Part shown: one piece after another, positions 6,051-15,264 of the stretch
How the letters are laid out: each line of letters begins with the position of its first letter
Numbering within the stretch: the first letter of the stretch is position 1
Virus record (IMG/VR): IMGVR_UViG_3300012346_000689
Coordinates: 15,318 to 79,317 of that record
From: a virus
Strand: one strand, 5' to 3'
DNA length: 64,000 nucleotides
Notes under the pieces: model-generated
Told to the model about the DNA's origin: nothing
Databases searched by the model: none
What the model saw: the letters and a program-made list of their open reading frames with translations, nothing else
Made by a program: the position numbers and the translations under genes

Positions 6051-6078
6051 ATTAAACCCCTAACAATAGGGGTTTAAT
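6051..6078. terminator. stem-loop, probable intrinsic terminator
   Basis: ATTAAACCCCTA-ACAA-TAGGGGTTTAAT. Confidence 0.5.
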
Positions 6079-6113
6079 AATAGTACAATTGACAATAAAG
6101 CCTTGAGGAAGTT

Positions 6114-6809
6114 ATGGATGTCATAGAAAGAGAGGGATTTTTAGCTTATAGCACGCTACCTAGTTTTAATCGTAAAGTTGACAAGGCTAAAGCGATAATT
6201 AAAGAAGCGATCGCTATTGCTCCGTCTTATGTAGCGGTGAGTTGGGGAAAAGATTCGACGGTATTGCTGCATTTGTGCCAGCAAATAAAGCCTGATATAT
6301 TAGCTATTTACCATGGACATATAGAGCGAGATTTAATATCTAATTATAGTGAAACAATTGATAATTATTGTCAGAAATTTTCAACTAATTTATTAATGTT
6401 AGAAACAGACGACGCTGATGAAAATATGGCAGTAAAAGCCCCTTATCAGCAATATCCAGTATGTTTTTTAGGTATTAGAGGAGAGGAAAATAAAAGAAGA
6501 AAAATAGCTTTAACTAAGTATGGATTAATTCATCAATACCAATCAGGTAAATTGATAGGAAACTGGAGAATAGCCCCGATCGGGTGGTGGACGTGGCAAG
6601 ATGTGTGGAGTTATATCGTCGCTAATGACATTCCGTATTTAAAGGCATATGATGACTCGATAAGAGGTTGGGAATTGTCGAGGACGACTGATCACGTCTC
6701 CAAAAAATTAAACAGACCGTTACATTTTCAGAGATTAGAGGAGTTTAAGCAGACCAATCATGTATATTATGATTATCTAAGAACACATTACCCAGAGGTT
6801 TTTTTATGA
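6114..6809 (+). CDS. CysH/PAPS-reductase-like PP-loop protein (type IV-B-associated kind)
   Basis: YVAVSWGKDSTVLLHL PP-loop, FLGIRGEENKRR, PIGWWTWQDVWSYIVANDIPY; close to the csf operon. Confidence 0.85.
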   Translation: MDVIEREGFLAYSTLPSFNRKVDKAKAIIKEAIAIAPSYVAVSWGKDSTVLLHLCQQIKPDILAIYHGHIERDLISNYSETIDNYCQKFSTNLLMLETDDADENMAVKAPYQQYPVCFLGIRGEENKRRKIALTKYGLIHQYQSGKLIGNWRIAPIGWWTWQDVWSYIVANDIPYLKAYDDSIRGWELSRTTDHVSKKLNRPLHFQRLEEFKQTNHVYYDYLRTHYPEVFL

Positions 6810-7423
6810 CACTGACAGATACTAAATGGGATTTATTTTCAATGGTAAGAATCGGAAAAGTACAAGAGAATGATGGCAGAATTTGTCCCTTTTTAACTCA
6901 GGCAATTGAATCATTACCATCTACAACGCAAGAGTTTATGATGGTTATGAGAGATTTTTATGAGTCTCAAGAAGGTATTTTGTCAGAAACTAATCAGCTG
7001 TATGTTGACGCTTTAAAAGGAAATTTTGATGATGGTACGTTAGGCAAATCTTTACAGGATTTTTATAGTGAGCATACTTTCCCTATGATAGGAAAGTTAG
7101 GAGCTTTTCCTGCTAAGTATATTTTGATCCATGATGCTCATCACATCCTAATTAATGTAGAGACTGATGAACAGGGAGAAATTGATACGATCGCTTTTGA
7201 AGGTGCTTTAATTAACCCTTTGAGTAGTCGTGGAATTGTGCCATTATTATCTCAAATTCGAGCATTTGAGAATACTAATTTTGACGTTATTCGAGTCGCT
7301 AAAGCTTGGGAAGTAGGTTGTAATGTTCGAGGTGATTTATTAGAAACTTGGGATATTTTGGCAGATTTGAACAGTTCTATTTCTAGTTTACAGCAAAAGT
7401 ATAATATTACACCAGTTCTCTAA
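6806..7423 (+). CDS. Coq4-like protein (HDxxH-x11-E motif)
   Basis: GTLGKSLQDF...IHDAHHILINVETDEQGEIDTIAFE; ATGA-coupled to the cysH-like gene. Confidence 0.6.
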   Translation: MTLTDTKWDLFSMVRIGKVQENDGRICPFLTQAIESLPSTTQEFMMVMRDFYESQEGILSETNQLYVDALKGNFDDGTLGKSLQDFYSEHTFPMIGKLGAFPAKYILIHDAHHILINVETDEQGEIDTIAFEGALINPLSSRGIVPLLSQIRAFENTNFDVIRVAKAWEVGCNVRGDLLETWDILADLNSSISSLQQKYNITPVL

Positions 7424-7432
7424 TTAATAGTA

Positions 7433-7455
7433 AAAGCCACCGTAAAGGTGGCTTT
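7433..7455. terminator. bidirectional intrinsic terminator
   Basis: AAAGCCACC-GTAAA-GGTGGCTTT between convergent genes. Confidence 0.7.
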
Positions 7456-7460
7456 GTTGG

Positions 7461-7961
7461 TTATCTTTCTAAAATTAATTCCTTCTTGGTGAGAAAGTTT
7501 TCAACCTTTCCGACATGAGGATCAGATAAAATAGCTTTCGCATTTTCTACCCAAAAATCAGGGTTTTGATTGTTTCTGTACCGTTTTAATCCTCGCCATT
7601 TATGCTCATACATAGGGTAGCGACCAGCATCGGTTTCACCATACATTTTAATTAAATCTTGATAATCGTTAGGCTGATATTTCTGCCACAATTCTCCATT
7701 TGTTAAATTTGAATGACAGAGAATACTACACTCATCATCGTCTGTAGCATCATCATAAAAAAGATTGCCCGTATGATTTTGCAACCATTGCGCTAATTGT
7801 TCAATCATGATTTGTTCCTCAATTAATAAATCAATAGAATTAGATTGGTTTTTTTGTTGATCTAACCACTCGATAGAAGTAGCAGTTAGAGAGAAATTTT
7901 TTCGCCCTGCTTTAGTGCGTGGCTTGCCTAGATTGGCAAGCGATTTGGGGTTATACGGCAT
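7461..7961 (-). CDS. hypothetical protein, N-terminus like small ribbon-helix-helix DNA binders
   Basis: MPYNPKSLANL...NFSLTATSIEWLDQQKNQSNSIDLLIEE. Confidence 0.5.
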   Translation of the reverse strand: MPYNPKSLANLGKPRTKAGRKNFSLTATSIEWLDQQKNQSNSIDLLIEEQIMIEQLAQWLQNHTGNLFYDDATDDDECSILCHSNLTNGELWQKYQPNDYQDLIKMYGETDAGRYPMYEHKWRGLKRYRNNQNPDFWVENAKAILSDPHVGKVENFLTKKELILER

Positions 7962-8286
7962 TAGCTAAATACTTTTCTAAATCTTCTTTGAGAGACTCAA
8001 AAGATTGGTATGTTTGAGACCGTTTTGTTTTTCCTGTTTCAGTTGACAGTTCAATTGAACAAATAATATTTTTCTGCCAACGGAATTGGGATTCCCTTTC
8101 CCCAGTGTGAACAGCGTAATGAATAGAACTATAGTATCGATTTTTGTTGTATTGCCAGCGACTAATTGACACACTAGCGCGATTACATAATTCTAGGATT
8201 TCTGTATAAATTTTTCGAGATTCCCCTTGCAACCGACTTGGAATAATCAATTCGTAATTTTCCGATTCAACTAAAATAGTAGTCAT
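7951..8286 (-). CDS. hypothetical protein
   Basis: GAGG RBS, 111 aa. Confidence 0.55.
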   Translation of the reverse strand: MTTILVESENYELIIPSRLQGESRKIYTEILELCNRASVSISRWQYNKNRYYSSIHYAVHTGERESQFRWQKNIICSIELSTETGKTKRSQTYQSFESLKEDLEKYLANAV

Positions 8287-8348
8287 GGTTTTATCCTCTT
8301 TGTTTTACAATGTTTGATACACAGCCTAAAACTATACCTATAAAAAAT

Positions 8349-8900
8349 CTATAGAGCGTGTCTGAATAACCGGTATTGCCATTTGAAAGCAAGACTTTCG
8401 TTGTAGTATTCTAATTTTTCTGGTGAAGCATCGGAAAATAGAGAATACAGATCGATAAACTCATATAAATTAGGTAGGCTTAGATTTCCATATTTACGGT
8501 TTTCAATTAAATATTTAGCAGACGTACAAGTAATGATCGCATTTTTGATTAGGTTTGCCATTGTAATCCGTTTTGTGAGTTTTGGAAGTCTTTTTTGTTG
8601 GAAATCACTAAGGCAGTCCAACTTTACTAATTTATCGACATCTTTTTGTAATTTGGCAATAGTTTCAGATAATGTTTTTAACATTTCCGCTTTAATGTCT
8701 TCAGCCCATGCGATTTGTTTTTCAGAGCCTTCTAATTTAAGAGATTCTAAGTTTACCTGAAATCTTTCGATCGCAGATTCTAGCCTGTTAATTTGAAATA
8801 TAACGGTGACTATCACAGTACGACTAAAATATTTAGCATTAGCAATCATGTGGTTAAGTTTAGCGTTTAACTGTTGTAATCGTTTTTCTAATCGAGTCAT
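8349..8900 (-). CDS. hypothetical protein with GSEKQIAWAEDI motif (start reassigned to MTRLEK)
   Basis: GAGG RBS upstream; consensus-like TTGACA-18-TATAAT promoter on the minus strand at 8932-8961. Confidence 0.6.
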   Translation of the reverse strand: MTRLEKRLQQLNAKLNHMIANAKYFSRTVIVTVIFQINRLESAIERFQVNLESLKLEGSEKQIAWAEDIKAEMLKTLSETIAKLQKDVDKLVKLDCLSDFQQKRLPKLTKRITMANLIKNAIITCTSAKYLIENRKYGNLSLPNLYEFIDLYSLFSDASPEKLEYYNESLAFKWQYRLFRHAL

Positions 8901-8980
8901 GGGTTTAACCTCTCTACCTGTGTATATTCTAATTATACACACGATTAGAATCATTTGTCAACCCCTAAAATGAAAAAAAA

Positions 8981-9706
8981 ATGAAAAATTCTTGTATTCA
9001 AGTCACAGCAAAGCTTTCAAGCCATTTGTGTGTCAGTAATGATTGGACTCCGATGTTAGAGTCTATTCTGGAGTCAGTCTGGTTAGATGATCGTGGTTTA
9101 TCCGCGCGTAACCCGTTAAAAATAGAAGACACTATAGAGATCCCTATCCCATTGCGATCGCAGTCTGTCAAATCGACTAAATTCTATTCCGCTTCATCTC
9201 CTTTATATATAATTAAAAATGAGAGTGTGACTTACATTCGCTACCGGTGGGATTACCAGGAACATCATTGCGATTGGGGAAAAAAGAAAGCGCAGGTTTT
9301 TACTCAAGGATTTCATACTAAATACAAAAATACTCCATTACGTCTAGTCGAAACGGATCAAATAGACTGGTTTTGCGTAGGGGATAAAAATCAATTAATT
9401 GATATGTTGAACAAATGTACTCATGTTGGTGGTCATAGGGCTAGAGGTTATGGACAAGTCGATGAATGGATAGTTAACAAGATTGATGATGACTGGAGTT
9501 TGTGGCAGGGTGATCGATTAATGCGTCCGTTCCCCGTGCGATTGTTACCAGAAGGTATTGATGTTAGTACAGCAACTAAATTATTTTGGGGATGGAAAAC
9601 ACCAATTAGATGCCCAGAAAATAGAGAAGAATGTGTTATGCCATCTAACACTATTCATAAGGATAAAATAAATTTACACAATATTGATTATTTTGACGCT
9701 GTATAA
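8981..9706 (+). CDS. csf3: type IV CRISPR Cas5-family RAMP (Csf3), divergent paralogue A
   Basis: RWDYQEHHCDWGKKKA, IDWFCVGDK, Gly-rich loop HVGGHRARGYGQVDEW, LMRPFP; clearly paralogous to 12328-13005. Confidence 0.8.
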   Translation: MKNSCIQVTAKLSSHLCVSNDWTPMLESILESVWLDDRGLSARNPLKIEDTIEIPIPLRSQSVKSTKFYSASSPLYIIKNESVTYIRYRWDYQEHHCDWGKKKAQVFTQGFHTKYKNTPLRLVETDQIDWFCVGDKNQLIDMLNKCTHVGGHRARGYGQVDEWIVNKIDDDWSLWQGDRLMRPFPVRLLPEGIDVSTATKLFWGWKTPIRCPENREECVMPSNTIHKDKINLHNIDYFDAV

Positions 9707-9708
9707 TT

Positions 9709-10482
9709 ATGAATTACTGTTACATTTGCGGGGACAAAAATGCCTCAAAACCATTAGCTTTAAAAGACTCATTTACTGATCACAGTTTGTGCCAAGCTCC
9801 TCAGTCAAAAAATCTATGCGATCGCTGTTACGATTGCCTAGACGGAAAATATAAACAGTGCTGGTATCAAAAAGCTGATGGCAAAGTGAGTAAATTGTGG
9901 GGAAGAAATTGGTCTTGGTTGGTATCTGAAAAGGAGTCTTATCCACAATTTCAAGAGGGGAAAGACGGGTTATTAGAAGTGTTCAATTTACCAACTAGAG
10001 AACTAACTAGAAAGTGGATTGTAAACCCTCCTGCGCCACCTTTTACAATTTGTATAGCGGTGTCAGGGCAAAGGCATACCTATCCTTTTAGTCAGGTTAG
10101 TTATTCTCAAAAATTAATACCAATTACTTTCGAGAAAACTCTTATCAACTGGCGAAAAGATGATCAGTTTTACCTTAATCTCTTTGAAGAGTTTATGAGT
10201 TTAGGATTCTCAAAAACTGAGATAGTATCGGGTGATTATAGCCCAAATAAACTTACCTTGATCGATGTTGATGATTTCTTAGCTAAAGATAAGTATTTAG
10301 CTATTCTTAGAAATACCTCATTGATGGATTTATTGAGTTATATAGCTATAAAACCAGATGTGTTACCTGAAACTCAAGAGATTAATCCTGAACCGATAAA
10401 ACAACCTGCTAAAGTAGAGGTTGAAGACAAAAAGGAATCAGCTTTTACTATTGAATCAAATGGACAATTATCACTTTTTTAA
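9709..10482 (+). CDS. csf1: type IV Cas8-like large subunit (Csf1)
   Basis: CYICG...DSFTDH...LCDRC Zn ribbon, WIVNPPAPPFTICIAVSGQRHTYP, SQKLIPITFE. Confidence 0.8.
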   Translation: MNYCYICGDKNASKPLALKDSFTDHSLCQAPQSKNLCDRCYDCLDGKYKQCWYQKADGKVSKLWGRNWSWLVSEKESYPQFQEGKDGLLEVFNLPTRELTRKWIVNPPAPPFTICIAVSGQRHTYPFSQVSYSQKLIPITFEKTLINWRKDDQFYLNLFEEFMSLGFSKTEIVSGDYSPNKLTLIDVDDFLAKDKYLAILRNTSLMDLLSYIAIKPDVLPETQEINPEPIKQPAKVEVEDKKESAFTIESNGQLSLF

Positions 10483-10484
10483 TT

Positions 10485-10991
10485 ATGTACGGAATTAAAT
10501 CAACTGACCCTAAAATATCGTTAGCAACTGCTCTAACTTATTGGTGTTTTAAATGCCGTAAGCGTAACCCTCCAGTTGTTAAACCTGTAGATACTTGGAA
10601 TTATCTAAAAAGCAGCATTGCTAACGCTGCGACTCCATCAAAAAACCTTAACGATTACATAGAAAACCTCGGTAAAAAGTTACTTGTGCCATCTTTAAGA
10701 CCGGTAGAATGGACTCGAATTATTAGACCTAAGATTACTATTCAAAGAGTAGTTAAAGAAGATGGTAGAATCCTTGAACTATATGAGGATCAAGAAAATG
10801 AAGAGCTACTTTTCTATTCATGGGAAGACATTCTTATAGAGTTGGCTCCTCTAGGAATAACTGAACGACATATCCTCAAGACTTGCCTTAAGTACCCGTC
10901 TGTTATCTGTGCTTTTGCTAGAGTACGTTATGAAGATGACAAAGCGATCGGGCAAGAAATTGAGTTAGAATCTGAAACAATTGACGTTTAA
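10485..10991 (+). CDS. putative Cas11 small subunit of type IV-B
   Basis: Helical 168-aa protein between csf1 and csf2 (WNYLKSSIANAA...LNDYIENLGKKL); mainly a positional call. Confidence 0.6.
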   Translation: MYGIKSTDPKISLATALTYWCFKCRKRNPPVVKPVDTWNYLKSSIANAATPSKNLNDYIENLGKKLLVPSLRPVEWTRIIRPKITIQRVVKEDGRILELYEDQENEELLFYSWEDILIELAPLGITERHILKTCLKYPSVICAFARVRYEDDKAIGQEIELESETIDV

Positions 10992-11009: not shown

Positions 11010-12224
11010 ATGTTTGAAAATTATGATGTAAATGACCGTCATCAAATAAGATTTGATGTAGTAATTGAAACCCTGTCACCATTAAGCCATATTGGGGAAA
11101 GTATAGGTAATCAAAGCAATTTAAAAACTTTAGATATTACCGACCTGACAGGTGAATCTAATCCTGTTTTTGTGTACTCTTCTAATAGTTTAAGAAACGG
11201 TTTGTTCAGGCGAAAAGGTACGTTATCAATGTTAGATGACCTTGATTTAACTGTTAATCCTACAACTCACCAAACGTTATTTGCGGGTGGTTTTATTGAA
11301 GGTGGCACAGCAGTAGATTTAGAATTAGATGCCAAAGTTCGGAAGTTTTTGCCATCAATATCGGTGCTAGGAACAGCTAAACCACCAGGGCTATTTAATA
11401 GTAATAATAGTCAAATGATTGGTGGCAGAATTAATATAGGAGGTGCTTATTTAGTATGTTTAGAAACTGCTGAATACATCTATAAAAGTTTTCCCCCTTT
11501 ATTGCCTTATTCAGTGCTTTCGTTTGTAAAAGAATTGGTAGAAGCAAAGCAATCTTTATTTAATGATAGAGTGAATGCTTGGCTTTATCAAAAACAAATT
11601 TCTGGTATTCAAGAAAAGGTAAGAAATTATCAAGAGTTATTGTTAGAATATATGCCACTATTAGAAGATAAATTAAGGAGTTATACGCAGTGGCTAACCT
11701 ATAATCAAAAGGTCAGAATGGATAGTTTAAAAGACCCACATTTAGCACAATATATTAACAGTAATCATCAAATAGGAGGGCAACAAACAAGCTTACTGAG
11801 TGAATCAAAGCCAGATAAAAAGAAGGGTAAATCTTCTGATGAAAAGCACTCTCAACAGATGATTATGGGCGACTGGCTGTTACAGCCGGGTGCGACTTTA
11901 TATTCTCGTTGGGATGGAAATATCACTGATGTTGAAGAGGGAATGCTCGCAGCCGCACTACTAAAATTCGCTGAATCACCGTACTTAGGAGGTAAATGTG
12001 GAACAGGGTGCGGACTTGTTTCTTTTGATATTTATTATCGATCGGGTCAAGAAGCGGGCAAGTGGCTGACTATAGCTCCAGACTCTCAAATATTGTCAGA
12101 AAGATGTCAGGAAAACTATCAAAGATATATGCAACATTTAGAGCAATTTAAAGGATATATTGCTTCAGCAAAACAGGATATAACTAAGTTTCTAAGTGAA
12201 CGTTCTGGGAGTCGCACCCAGTAG
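11010..12224 (+). CDS. csf2: type IV Cas7 backbone RAMP (Csf2)
   Basis: IETLSPLSHIGES, PVFVYSSNSLRNGLFRR, LFAGG, FLPSISVLG, IGGRINIG, YLGGKCGTGCGLV Gly loop. Confidence 0.88.
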   Translation: MFENYDVNDRHQIRFDVVIETLSPLSHIGESIGNQSNLKTLDITDLTGESNPVFVYSSNSLRNGLFRRKGTLSMLDDLDLTVNPTTHQTLFAGGFIEGGTAVDLELDAKVRKFLPSISVLGTAKPPGLFNSNNSQMIGGRINIGGAYLVCLETAEYIYKSFPPLLPYSVLSFVKELVEAKQSLFNDRVNAWLYQKQISGIQEKVRNYQELLLEYMPLLEDKLRSYTQWLTYNQKVRMDSLKDPHLAQYINSNHQIGGQQTSLLSESKPDKKKGKSSDEKHSQQMIMGDWLLQPGATLYSRWDGNITDVEEGMLAAALLKFAESPYLGGKCGTGCGLVSFDIYYRSGQEAGKWLTIAPDSQILSERCQENYQRYMQHLEQFKGYIASAKQDITKFLSERSGSRTQ

Positions 12225-12327: not shown

Positions 12328-13005
12328 ATGGATAACTTACAAGTAACGGCTTATCTATCAACTCCACTCTCTACTGACCTATTTAGCCCTAATCTAGACG
12401 CGCTATTGTATCGATTATGGCTAGAAGAAAAAGGTCTTTATAATCCTAACGTAAAACGGACTGAGGATGTTATAAAAGCAGATGTTCCTATCAAATTGAT
12501 AGAAGAAAAAGGGTATCAATATTACTCTGTATCTGCGCCTCATTTTATCATCCTAAACGAACAAAACACCCGCTATCGGAGGCGTTGGGATTATCAAGAG
12601 CATCATTGTGACTTTGGCAAAAAGAAGGCTAAAGTCGATACGCAACAAGGCAATACTAAAAGCTGCGATCTGCCACTGAGACTGATAGAAACTAATAGGA
12701 TAGACTGGTTTTGTAACGGGGACAAATCAGAAATTGATCGTCTATTGTCTTCTGTAACAAATATCGGTAAAAAAATCTCTCAAGGTTTTGGGCAAGTTTT
12801 TCGTTGGCAGTCTCAAGTGGTAGAGGATGATTTTAGCGTCTGGCAAGATAAGCGATTAATGCGGATTTTGCCAGCAGAACTCATCCCTGAACATTTAAAA
12901 GAAAGGTATCCTCTGCGAGCGTGGACGTATCATCCCCCGTACTTTTTGCCTGAAAACAAAGCACTCTGCGCTATGCCTGCCAATACAAGAAGCGCATTAA
13001 ACTAA
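12328..13005 (+). CDS. csf3: type IV Cas5-family RAMP (Csf3), canonical paralogue B
   Basis: MDNLQVTAYLSTPL...PNLDALLY, YSVSAP, DTQQGNTKSCDLP, IDWFCNGD, NIGKKISQGFGQVFRW, YHPPYF. Confidence 0.85.
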   Translation: MDNLQVTAYLSTPLSTDLFSPNLDALLYRLWLEEKGLYNPNVKRTEDVIKADVPIKLIEEKGYQYYSVSAPHFIILNEQNTRYRRRWDYQEHHCDFGKKKAKVDTQQGNTKSCDLPLRLIETNRIDWFCNGDKSEIDRLLSSVTNIGKKISQGFGQVFRWQSQVVEDDFSVWQDKRLMRILPAELIPEHLKERYPLRAWTYHPPYFLPENKALCAMPANTRSALN

Positions 13006-14325: not shown

Positions 14326-15264
14326 ATGTCAATTAGTACAATGAAACACATAGTTATGTTTTCTGGTGGAGTTGCGTCGTGGTGTGCTGCTAAATTAGTA
14401 AGCGATCGCTACGGGATAGACAATTTAATATTACTTTTTGCTGATACTTTAATAGAGGATCAGGACTGTTATCGATTTATTTTAGAGGGTGCGGCTAACA
14501 TATTCAATATGAGACTTAACCCTAGATATATAGAAAAAGGGTTTTTAAATATTCCTGAGATAGGGGATATAAACCGTAATACTGTTTTATGGAGAATAGC
14601 AAACGAGTCTAGAGTAATTAGGGCTAATTTAGATAATGGTTTAGTCTGGTTGCAAGAAGGAAATGATGTTTGGGATGTGTTTTTTGAAGACAAATTCCTA
14701 AATCATTATGTTAGTAATTGCTCCAAGAAACTTAAACAAAAACCATGTAAAGGCTGGTTAAATTGGGGATTAGAGTCACAAGAGCCAACGGTAGCAAAAT
14801 ACTTAAATAACCCTGAAAATGTGACAATTTATTTAGGTATAGATATGAACGAGATTGAAAGAGCAGAGAAGATAATAGAAGGATATAAACCGTTTAAGGT
14901 AGATTTTCCTTTGCTTTGGGATAATTGGTTAGATAGAAAAGGGCAATTTGACCTATTAGAATCAGTTAATATTCAGCCACCGAGACTTTATAAATATGGT
15001 TTTTCTCATAACAATTGTGGAGGTTTTTGTGTTAAGGCGGGTAAGAAACAATTTGCACAATTACTAGATACTTTTCCTGATAGATATAATTACCACGCTC
15101 AACAAGAAAAAGCTTTCCAAAAGCATATAAAACAAGAGATTACTATATTAAGAGAGCAACATAATAACGAGAAAACAAGGCTTAGTTTGGCAGAGTTTAA
15201 AGAGCGTCCTAAGCAGTTGTCATTGTTTGATGCGATGGGTGGCTGCGGGTGTTTTATTGACTAA
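14326..15264 (+). CDS. phage PAPS-reductase-like PP-loop protein with Cys clusters
   Basis: HIVMFSGGVASW, LFADTLIEDQD, CSKKLK, YLGID, GFSHNNCGGFCVKAG, C-terminal GGCGCF. Confidence 0.75.
   Translation: MSISTMKHIVMFSGGVASWCAAKLVSDRYGIDNLILLFADTLIEDQDCYRFILEGAANIFNMRLNPRYIEKGFLNIPEIGDINRNTVLWRIANESRVIRANLDNGLVWLQEGNDVWDVFFEDKFLNHYVSNCSKKLKQKPCKGWLNWGLESQEPTVAKYLNNPENVTIYLGIDMNEIERAEKIIEGYKPFKVDFPLLWDNWLDRKGQFDLLESVNIQPPRLYKYGFSHNNCGGFCVKAGKKQFAQLLDTFPDRYNYHAQQEKAFQKHIKQEITILREQHNNEKTRLSLAEFKERPKQLSLFDAMGGCGCFID

Follow-up and report, generated by a model that had tools for sequence, protein, structure and literature searches.

A Coq4-like gene coupled to cysH in a clade of type IV-B-like loci, and the cupin gene found in the same slot

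What is a Coq4-like gene doing in a CRISPR-like operon? This question is raised by a 64-kb stretch of viral DNA (the window) out of the 84,261-bp IMG/VR virus record IMGVR_UViG_3300012346_000689, in which a cysH-like gene is followed directly by a gene for a 205-aa Coq4-like protein, with csf genes of a type IV-B-like CRISPR-Cas system nearby. Reviews have placed the key to type IV-B function in the CysH-like accessory protein, CasCysH (PMC8175902, PMC7038947), and this function was still called unclear in a 2026 paper (PMC13676074). From motifs, predicted folds and gene order, we consider it probable that the Coq4-like protein is a partner of CasCysH that has kept its metal site and is co-inherited and co-translated with it, so that the two would form a two-enzyme accessory module of one IV-B-like clade. 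The carriers of this clade are mostly cyanobacterial viruses together with one plasmid, and the module is best read as lineage-specific.

The CysH-like and Coq4-like proteins

The initial annotation of the window had described an ATGA overlap between the gene for an SWGKDS PP-loop protein and that for a protein with GTLGK and HDAHH-x11-E motifs, and all of these were found in the open reading frames (ORFs) that it had named. The ATGA at 6806-6809 combines the TGA stop of the cysH-like gene with the ATG start of the Coq4-like gene, and AGAGG, a Shine-Dalgarno-like stretch, lies about 8 nt upstream. Such an overlap is common on its own. In the 205-aa protein, the GTLGK motif is accompanied by HDAHH at residues 109-113 and, 11 residues on, by E125. 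Sequence comparison connects the protein to the Coq4 family at low scores: it matches Pfam Coq4 (PF05019) at E 0.033, its closest subfamily members (P0010, P0011 and P0013) reach 21.6-22.1 bits, phmmer aligns it with the Nostoc punctiforme Coq4-like structure 3msq at E 0.0025, and a 10-sequence profile finds Alr8543 (6e12) at E 0.022.

The Coq4 fold, which the initial annotation had suggested from the motif, was recovered by two independent structure aligners. In a Foldseek search with the AlphaFold2 (AF2) model of the protein, which is of moderate confidence (predicted local distance difference test score, pLDDT, 74.9), the top three matches were the only Coq4-family structures, 6e12 and 3msq (E 2e-4 to 2e-3, TM ~0.5 (0.54)), and the next match was at E 0.7. 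VIA, an aligner independent of Foldseek, gave Z scores of 10.6 and 9.2 to the same two structures and 4.0 to the next chain, the alignment at Z 10.6 covering 154 residues with a root-mean-square deviation of 4.5. A profile search of 1.84 billion representatives returned 155 matches, and across 44 diverse relatives chosen from them the sole invariant columns were H109, D110, H113 and E125; 19 of the 44 match Pfam Coq4 (at E 1e-3, best 1.4e-21). All of the top 30 feature matches in the ESM Atlas were Coq4 clusters, one of them half viral. Judged by motif and predicted fold, the 205-aa protein genuinely belongs to the Coq4 superfamily, if as a divergent member.

With the Coq4 family (eukaryotic COQ4, Alr8543 and the Npun protein in 3msq), the phage protein shares an all-helical fold, the HDxxH-x11-E motif, an upstream GTLG-type motif and, with the cyanobacterial structures, a size of about 200-225 aa. 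It differs from them in its identity of only 16-18% to the solved structures, in a Pfam score under the gathering score of the family, in having an additional invariant His (H112) and Glu (E132) in its own subfamily, where Y105 is invariant as well, and in its genetic setting, which lacks quinone-pathway neighbours and couples the gene to that of a PP-loop enzyme in a CRISPR-like operon. A second comparison is offered by bacterial proteins of about 315-345 aa (A3), half of which match Pfam Coq4. Their C-terminal domain aligns to phage residues 72-204 and bears the same motif (hhalign of A1 against A3, 99.9%), whereas they have a TerB-like domain at the N-terminus and are not known to be linked to csf or cysH. 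This TerB and Coq4-like family (P0027-P0050) is large in bacteria, and 86 of the listed representatives are 300-349 aa long. Close homologues of the phage protein are few: a word-indexed search of 5.8 billion proteins found only nine, tblastn against INPHARED phages gave no match for the Coq4-like, CysH-like or Csf2 protein, and PLSDB gave none for the Coq4-like protein.

The conservation of the metal ligands bears on whether the protein is catalytic. It could be a non-catalytic adaptor or a ligand sensor, holding CasCysH at the Csf complex or binding some lipid or small molecule, with a metal site of structural importance only; Alr8543 was crystallised with oleic acid and Mg (PDB 6e12), COQ4 was long seen as a scaffold of complex Q (10.1101/2023.11.13.566839), and translational coupling is typical for subunits of one complex. 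We regard this role as unlikely. Among the distant relatives, nothing but the four metal ligands is invariant, a pattern typical of catalytic sites, and COQ4 itself has now been shown to be an enzyme, whose motif binds two metal ions and has an essential aspartate (10.1101/2023.11.13.566839). A specific docking function is also hard to square with the cupin of unrelated fold that holds the same slot in sister loci, as described below.

The 231-aa CysH-like protein, with SWGKDS at residues 43-48, matches Pfam PAPS_reduct at 5.7e-13 and the PP-loop family weakly, and lies far under every NCBIfam equivalog cut-off (cysH, DndC, CysD and TilS). The cut-offs for bona fide PAPS reductases were failed by a wide margin (TIGR00434 and TIGR02057; 36.4 bits against 165.1 and 28.3 against 254.2). 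In an alignment of eight orthologues (A5), the SWGKDS PP-loop is invariant and there is no invariant Cys, as in CasCysH, which keeps the PP-loop and lacks the catalytic Cys of PAPS reductase (Taylor et al., PMC8175902). The AF2 model (ma0ee1fb4111b, pLDDT 74.5) is nearest to the PAPS-like FMN adenylyltransferase domain of FAD synthase (E 2e-8), followed by PAPS reductase (CysH), TtuA, CysD and TilS. The predicted fold is that of an adenine-nucleotide alpha-hydrolase and contains no pointer to sulfur chemistry. In a CysH tree, the window protein clusters with the CysH proteins of other csf-linked loci. That a cysH-like gene is the signature accessory of type IV-B, as the initial annotation had stated, agrees with published surveys (PMC8175902, PMC7038947).

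Recurrence of the pair and exchange of the partner gene

We examined the junction in the 10 informative contigs, namely those in which DNA upstream of the Coq4-like gene is present (the window, L001, L006, L007, L008 and L011-L015). In every one of them, cysH is followed directly by the Coq4-like gene, inside or beside a csf operon, so the linkage to cysH and csf on which the initial annotation had built extends well beyond the window. In nine of the 10, the pair is part of the csf operon, where it immediately precedes csf1 or stands between csf3 on one side and cas6 or csf1 on the other, and the frames overlap or abut. The metagenome contig L001 has cysH, the Coq4-like gene, csf1, cas11, csf2 and the start of csf3, all in one direction. 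Ten further contigs with a Coq4-like gene of 25-35% identity came from a scan of IMG/VR; by tblastn and hidden Markov model (HMM) scans, all eight of these that reach upstream have the order cas11-csf2-csf3-cysH-Coq4-like, followed by csf1 in L012 and L015 and otherwise by the gene for a Cas6 of 191-194 aa. The junction itself, usually an overlap of 1-14 nt, varies from the ATGA of the window to TAATG (L001 and L013), overlaps of 8-14 nt (L007, L014 and L015) and a 142-nt gap (L012). Two observations go beyond chance, the invariance of the metal-ligand columns in the 44 relatives and the recurrence of the gene order in every related contig that covers the junction; the linkage is not accidental. 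The ratio of nonsynonymous to synonymous substitution rates (dN/dS) of the Coq4-like gene, 0.04-0.27, is like those of cysH and csf2, with saturated dS in the distant pairs, and points to purifying selection.

These data also bear on whether the gene might be an ordinary phage auxiliary metabolic gene for the synthesis of host quinone (plastoquinone) with cysH as an incidental neighbour. Coq4 is a quinone-pathway enzyme in eukaryotes (10.1101/2023.11.13.566839) and Coq4-family proteins are common on cyanobacterial plasmids. We nevertheless hold this explanation to be very improbable: no other quinone-pathway gene lies nearby, the protein belongs to a divergent subfamily below the Pfam threshold, and the adjacency to cysH holds in all of the informative contigs, down to 25% identity. 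The classical cyanobacterial plasmid Coq4 genes, including the locus of Alr8543 itself, were considered as neighbours of PP-loop or csf genes and rejected, as none of these is nearby.

A search with the CysH alignment yielded 80 viral loci, among which we defined a close clade by a cysH at least 42% identical. Seven contigs of this clade have no Coq4-like gene, and in five of them (L020-L023 and L025) a cupin gene is found instead: the 342 nt from cysH to cas6 hold the reading frame of a cupin of 119 aa (PF07883, 7e-9, above threshold), which shares 11 nt with cysH and 8 nt with cas6. This viral cupin is 44% identical (E 2e-29) to an annotated cupin on the Gloeobacter morelensis plasmid pGMOR1, the locus of which reads cas11-csf2-cas6-csf3-cysH-cupin-csf1. 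The cupin HMM matched these six loci only, none of which has a Coq4-like gene; occupancy of the slot by the Coq4-like gene and by the cupin gene is mutually exclusive. In pGMOR1 and L020-L025, the Cupin_2 gene has the same operon position as the Coq4-like gene, overlapping cysH on one side and also csf1 or cas6 on the other, and it likewise encodes a small single-domain metalloprotein (the cupin is His-rich), while differing in its unrelated beta-barrel fold and its size of 119-131 aa.

The comparison of L008, which has the Coq4-like gene, with L022, which has the cupin gene, reveals how the two alternate. Their DNA matches at 97% identity as far as roughly codon 65 of cysH and resumes matching, at 95%, with cas6; the stretch in between shows no detectable similarity. 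Given this identity on both flanks and none between, the C-terminal two thirds of cysH and the partner gene were swapped as one cassette, as expected for co-adapted proteins. The replacement of the Coq4-like gene by a cupin gene in sister loci lends support to the idea of a two-enzyme module put forward in the initial annotation.

The cassette may be read in another way, in which CysH and the Coq4-like protein (or the cupin) form a self-contained module for nucleotide, cofactor or nucleic-acid modification that travels with csf genes and does not act via the Csf complex. The cassette is exchanged in one piece, apart from the cas genes on either side of it, which fits this reading. So do the stand-alone relatives of the Coq4-like protein described below and the layout of the window, where three genes on the opposite strand stand between csf3-csf1 and the pair, which has a promoter-like site and a terminator to itself. 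We judge it quite unlikely, given that the pair sits within the csf operon almost throughout the informative contigs and that cysH is near-invariantly linked to and co-diversified with type IV-B (PMC7038947).

Several observations weigh against a partnership of the Coq4-like protein with CasCysH, or limit its reach. Two contigs of the same close clade, L018 and L031, have neither the Coq4-like gene nor the cupin gene. The Coq4-like copy of L011 (L011:8091-8444, identical to L030:6862-7215) lacks about 180 nt from within the gene as it stands in the 99% identical L008, as a result of either decay or an assembly error. Outside the clade, about 35 more distant viral IV-B loci contain neither of the two partner genes, the Coq4-like gene being absent even by a wide HMM and the orders there being csf1-csf2-cysH-csf3 or csf1-csf2-csf3-cysH, and the IV-B loci on Rhodovastum and Thermococcus plasmids have neither partner, the genes after cysH being unrelated. 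The score of the 205-aa protein against Pfam Coq4 is under the gathering score (13.9 against 22.9 bits), and "COQ4 orthologue" would be the wrong name for a protein that misses Pfam's own threshold. Among the 155 profile matches (158 fetched proteins), none was a CysH-Coq4 fusion. In the window, the pair is bracketed by a promoter-like site and a terminator-like hairpin of its own (consensus matches only), and 1.5 kb of opposite-strand genes lies between it and the csf operon. Since a His/Asp/Glu metal site is all that the folds of Coq4 and cupins have in common, it is by inference that we assign the same function to both. Two further members of the subfamily, L099 (an Oscillatoriales metagenome-assembled genome, MAG) and L100 (an Actinomycetota chromosome), have no cysH or csf gene within 8 kb, and the Coq4-like protein can therefore work without CysH.

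The two trees place these cases. In the CysH tree, the close clade comprises 17 rows with support 87/92; the Coq4-like gene occurs in five of its eight lineages, which takes at least three changes on an unresolved backbone. In a quick tree of Coq4-like proteins, the csf-linked ones form two groups within a well-supported clade that also holds the proteins of L099 and L100. Going beyond the initial annotation, we conclude that the partner is confined to one clade, that it has been lost in some loci and that it has relatives outside csf contexts.

Several other candidates were followed up. The genes after cysH in distant loci were compared by hhalign as possible hidden Coq4 relatives (proteins of 207 aa in Thermococcus, 192 and 197 aa in Rhodovastum, and 232 and 243 aa in Gloeobacter) and rejected at probabilities of 1.3% or less; the 232-aa Gloeobacter protein is Csf1. 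A scan of genome contigs for the Coq4-like gene gave three loci. L098, a HIP1-rich MAG contig, retains only the Coq4-like gene and csf1 behind an IS605 TnpB insertion and is therefore a decayed locus; the IS605-type TnpB gene runs exactly up to the point at which homology to the Coq4-like gene starts, in the same frame (L098:6573-8000 and 8079-9258). Its composition suggests that the bin label Saprospiraceae is doubtful. The metagenome contig L002 (3075-4445), in which a Coq4-like N-terminus runs in frame into fumarylacetoacetase and is followed by Bacteroidota-type type IX secretion system genes, was set aside as most likely a chimeric assembly.

The island in the window and its virus

The ends of the virus record are direct terminal repeats, the window encodes a large terminase, portal, head protease, major head protein and an integrase, and the cyanobacterial HIP1 octamer occurs in it 50 times against 0.34 expected. 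Based on these three features, the record is that of a tailed and probably temperate cyanophage. The island reads, on the plus strand, cysH-like and Coq4-like genes, then three opposite-strand ORFs (7461-8954), and then csf3, csf1, a gene in the cas11 position, csf2 and a second csf3 (Table 1). A hairpin at 6051-6078 closes the gene upstream of the cysH-like gene, and the promoter-like site comes after it.

Table 1. Coordinates of the island features in the window
Feature	Position	Strand	Basis or remark
Promoter-like site 5' of the cysH-like gene (CTAACA-18-TACAAT, 9/12)	6060-6089	+	consensus match only
CasCysH-like PP-loop protein, 231 aa, SWGKDS, no conserved catalytic Cys	6114-6809	+	
Putative Coq4-superfamily metalloprotein, 205 aa, HDAHH-x11-E, coupled to cysH via ATGA	6806-7423	+	
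Terminator-like hairpin and T-run 3' of the Coq4-like gene, between convergent genes	7433-7455	+	consensus match only
csf3 (Cas5)-like paralogue a	8981-9706	+	TIGR03116 1.3e-9, sub-threshold; own HMM 1e-102
csf1-like large subunit	9709-10482	+	TIGR03114 6.8e-6, sub-threshold; homologues in L001, L012, L014, L015, L005
cas11-like small subunit	10485-10991	+	position and conserved homologues; gene before csf2 in all related loci
csf2 (Cas7)-like backbone subunit	11010-12224	+	TIGR03115 4.8e-8, sub-threshold; 41-51% identity in related loci
csf3 (Cas5)-like paralogue b	12328-13005	+	TIGR03116 7.8e-16

The NCBIfam scores of the csf1, csf2 and csf3 genes of the window are all sub-threshold, and the ORF in the cas11 position had no family match in Pfam or NCBIfam scans. 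By gene content (csf1, csf2, csf3 and cas11 with a linked cysH-like gene), the locus classifies as a type IV-B-like system. No array-like repeats were found across the 64 kb and no Cas6 homologue in the window; DinG and cas1/cas2 had no separate search. With type IV-B systems that carry CasCysH, such as the Csf complex of Mycobacterium sp. JS623 (PMC7937560, PMC8175902), the window shares csf1, cas11, csf2 and csf3, a cysH-like gene without the catalytic Cys, carriage on a mobile element and the lack of Cas6 and an array. It differs from them in the second accessory gene coupled to cysH (a cupin gene in sister loci), in its two csf3 paralogues and in being carried by a tailed cyanophage, although IV-B loci in phages and archaeal viruses were already known (PMC10848311).

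The sister loci differ from the known systems in that many have Cas6 and two have CRISPR arrays, both of which are rare in IV-B (12 instances; PMC7038947). Cas6 (191-263 aa) is encoded directly after the cysH partner gene in most sister loci (L006-L011, L013, L014 and L020-L031), and also at L005:5516-6307. An example lies at L007:8622-9203. The Cas6 proteins have a C-terminal GLGGxxxLGCG, and the Gloeobacter copy matches Pfam Cas6 at 1.2e-49. The arrays are in two viral contigs that have the Coq4-like gene and no Cas6 (L012:10285-10760 and L015:13930-14708), with 7 and 11 repeats of 37 nt at a period of about 72 nt, 0.9 kb and 4.6 kb downstream of csf1.

Other features of the island were noted in passing. 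A perfect sigma-70 consensus (TTGACA-18-TATAAT; 8932-8961, minus strand) precedes the three opposite-strand ORFs and is divergent from csf3 paralogue a. The 201-aa ORF among them (8349-8954, minus strand) has a relative between csf2 and csf3 in L012 (L012:5645-6298, minus strand; 51% identity over 35 aa only), which hints that these operons have a small insert that is mobile or recurrent. A second PAPS-reductase-like ORF of 312 aa (14326-15264, plus strand; phrog_424 2.8e-42, no Pfam match) lies 1.3 kb 3' of the csf operon; it was considered as a paralogue of the cysH-like gene and rejected, BLASTP detecting no relation.

A possible function for the pair

How could the two enzymes of the proposed module act together? 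We propose that CasCysH would bind ATP and activate a substrate, by adenylation or in some other way, because it lacks the reductase Cys and resembles adenylyl-transferring PP-loop enzymes. Adenylation is common to PP-loop and FMNAT-like enzymes in general, and a role as an ATP alpha-hydrolase or AMPylating enzyme has been proposed for it before (PMC8175902, PMC13676074). Either before or after this activation, the same substrate would undergo a metal-dependent step, be it oxidative, decarboxylating or hydrolytic, catalysed by the Coq4-like protein or, in sister loci, by the cupin, and the Csf ribonucleoprotein would supply targeting or scaffolding. COQ4 is a metal-dependent enzyme that catalyses an O2-dependent C1 oxidative decarboxylation in the quinone pathway of eukaryotes (10.1101/2023.11.13.566839), and we consider oxidative or decarboxylating chemistry by analogy with this reaction and with that of many cupins. 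A hydrolytic step would be equally possible because the metal site of COQ4 resembles those of binuclear hydrolases (10.1101/2023.11.13.566839). What we infer here includes catalysis, the physical interaction, the order of the steps, the substrate and any link to Csf beyond the genomic linkage. More tentatively, the pair, working with the Csf complex, might chemically alter a bound nucleic acid in a reaction that is coupled to adenylation and depends on metal and possibly on O2, or might make a small-molecule signal.

The initial annotation knew of no Coq4-like gene as a type IV-B partner, and our full-text literature search found no paper linking Coq4 to type IV. The main texts of three published surveys of IV-B accessories (including PMC8175902 and PMC7038947) mention neither Coq4 nor cupin, the sole extra neighbour in them being an ADP-ribosyltransferase. 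As far as this search shows, the pairing of CysH with a Coq4-like protein is new to the literature, and the slot that alternates between a Coq4-like and a cupin gene is the most useful new fact. Type IV-B is among the last CRISPR-Cas subtypes without a known function, and a second, tightly coupled accessory enzyme that is kept by selection and replaceable by another metalloprotein narrows the chemistry to be sought. Natural variants with the Coq4-like protein, with the cupin, with neither, and with or without Cas6 and arrays are available for this, and bacterial and viral Coq4-like proteins of unknown function gain a defined genetic partner. If the more tentative scheme is true, an interchangeable enzyme of Coq4 or cupin fold would point to oxidative or decarboxylating chemistry, an effector activity that no CRISPR-Cas system is known to have.

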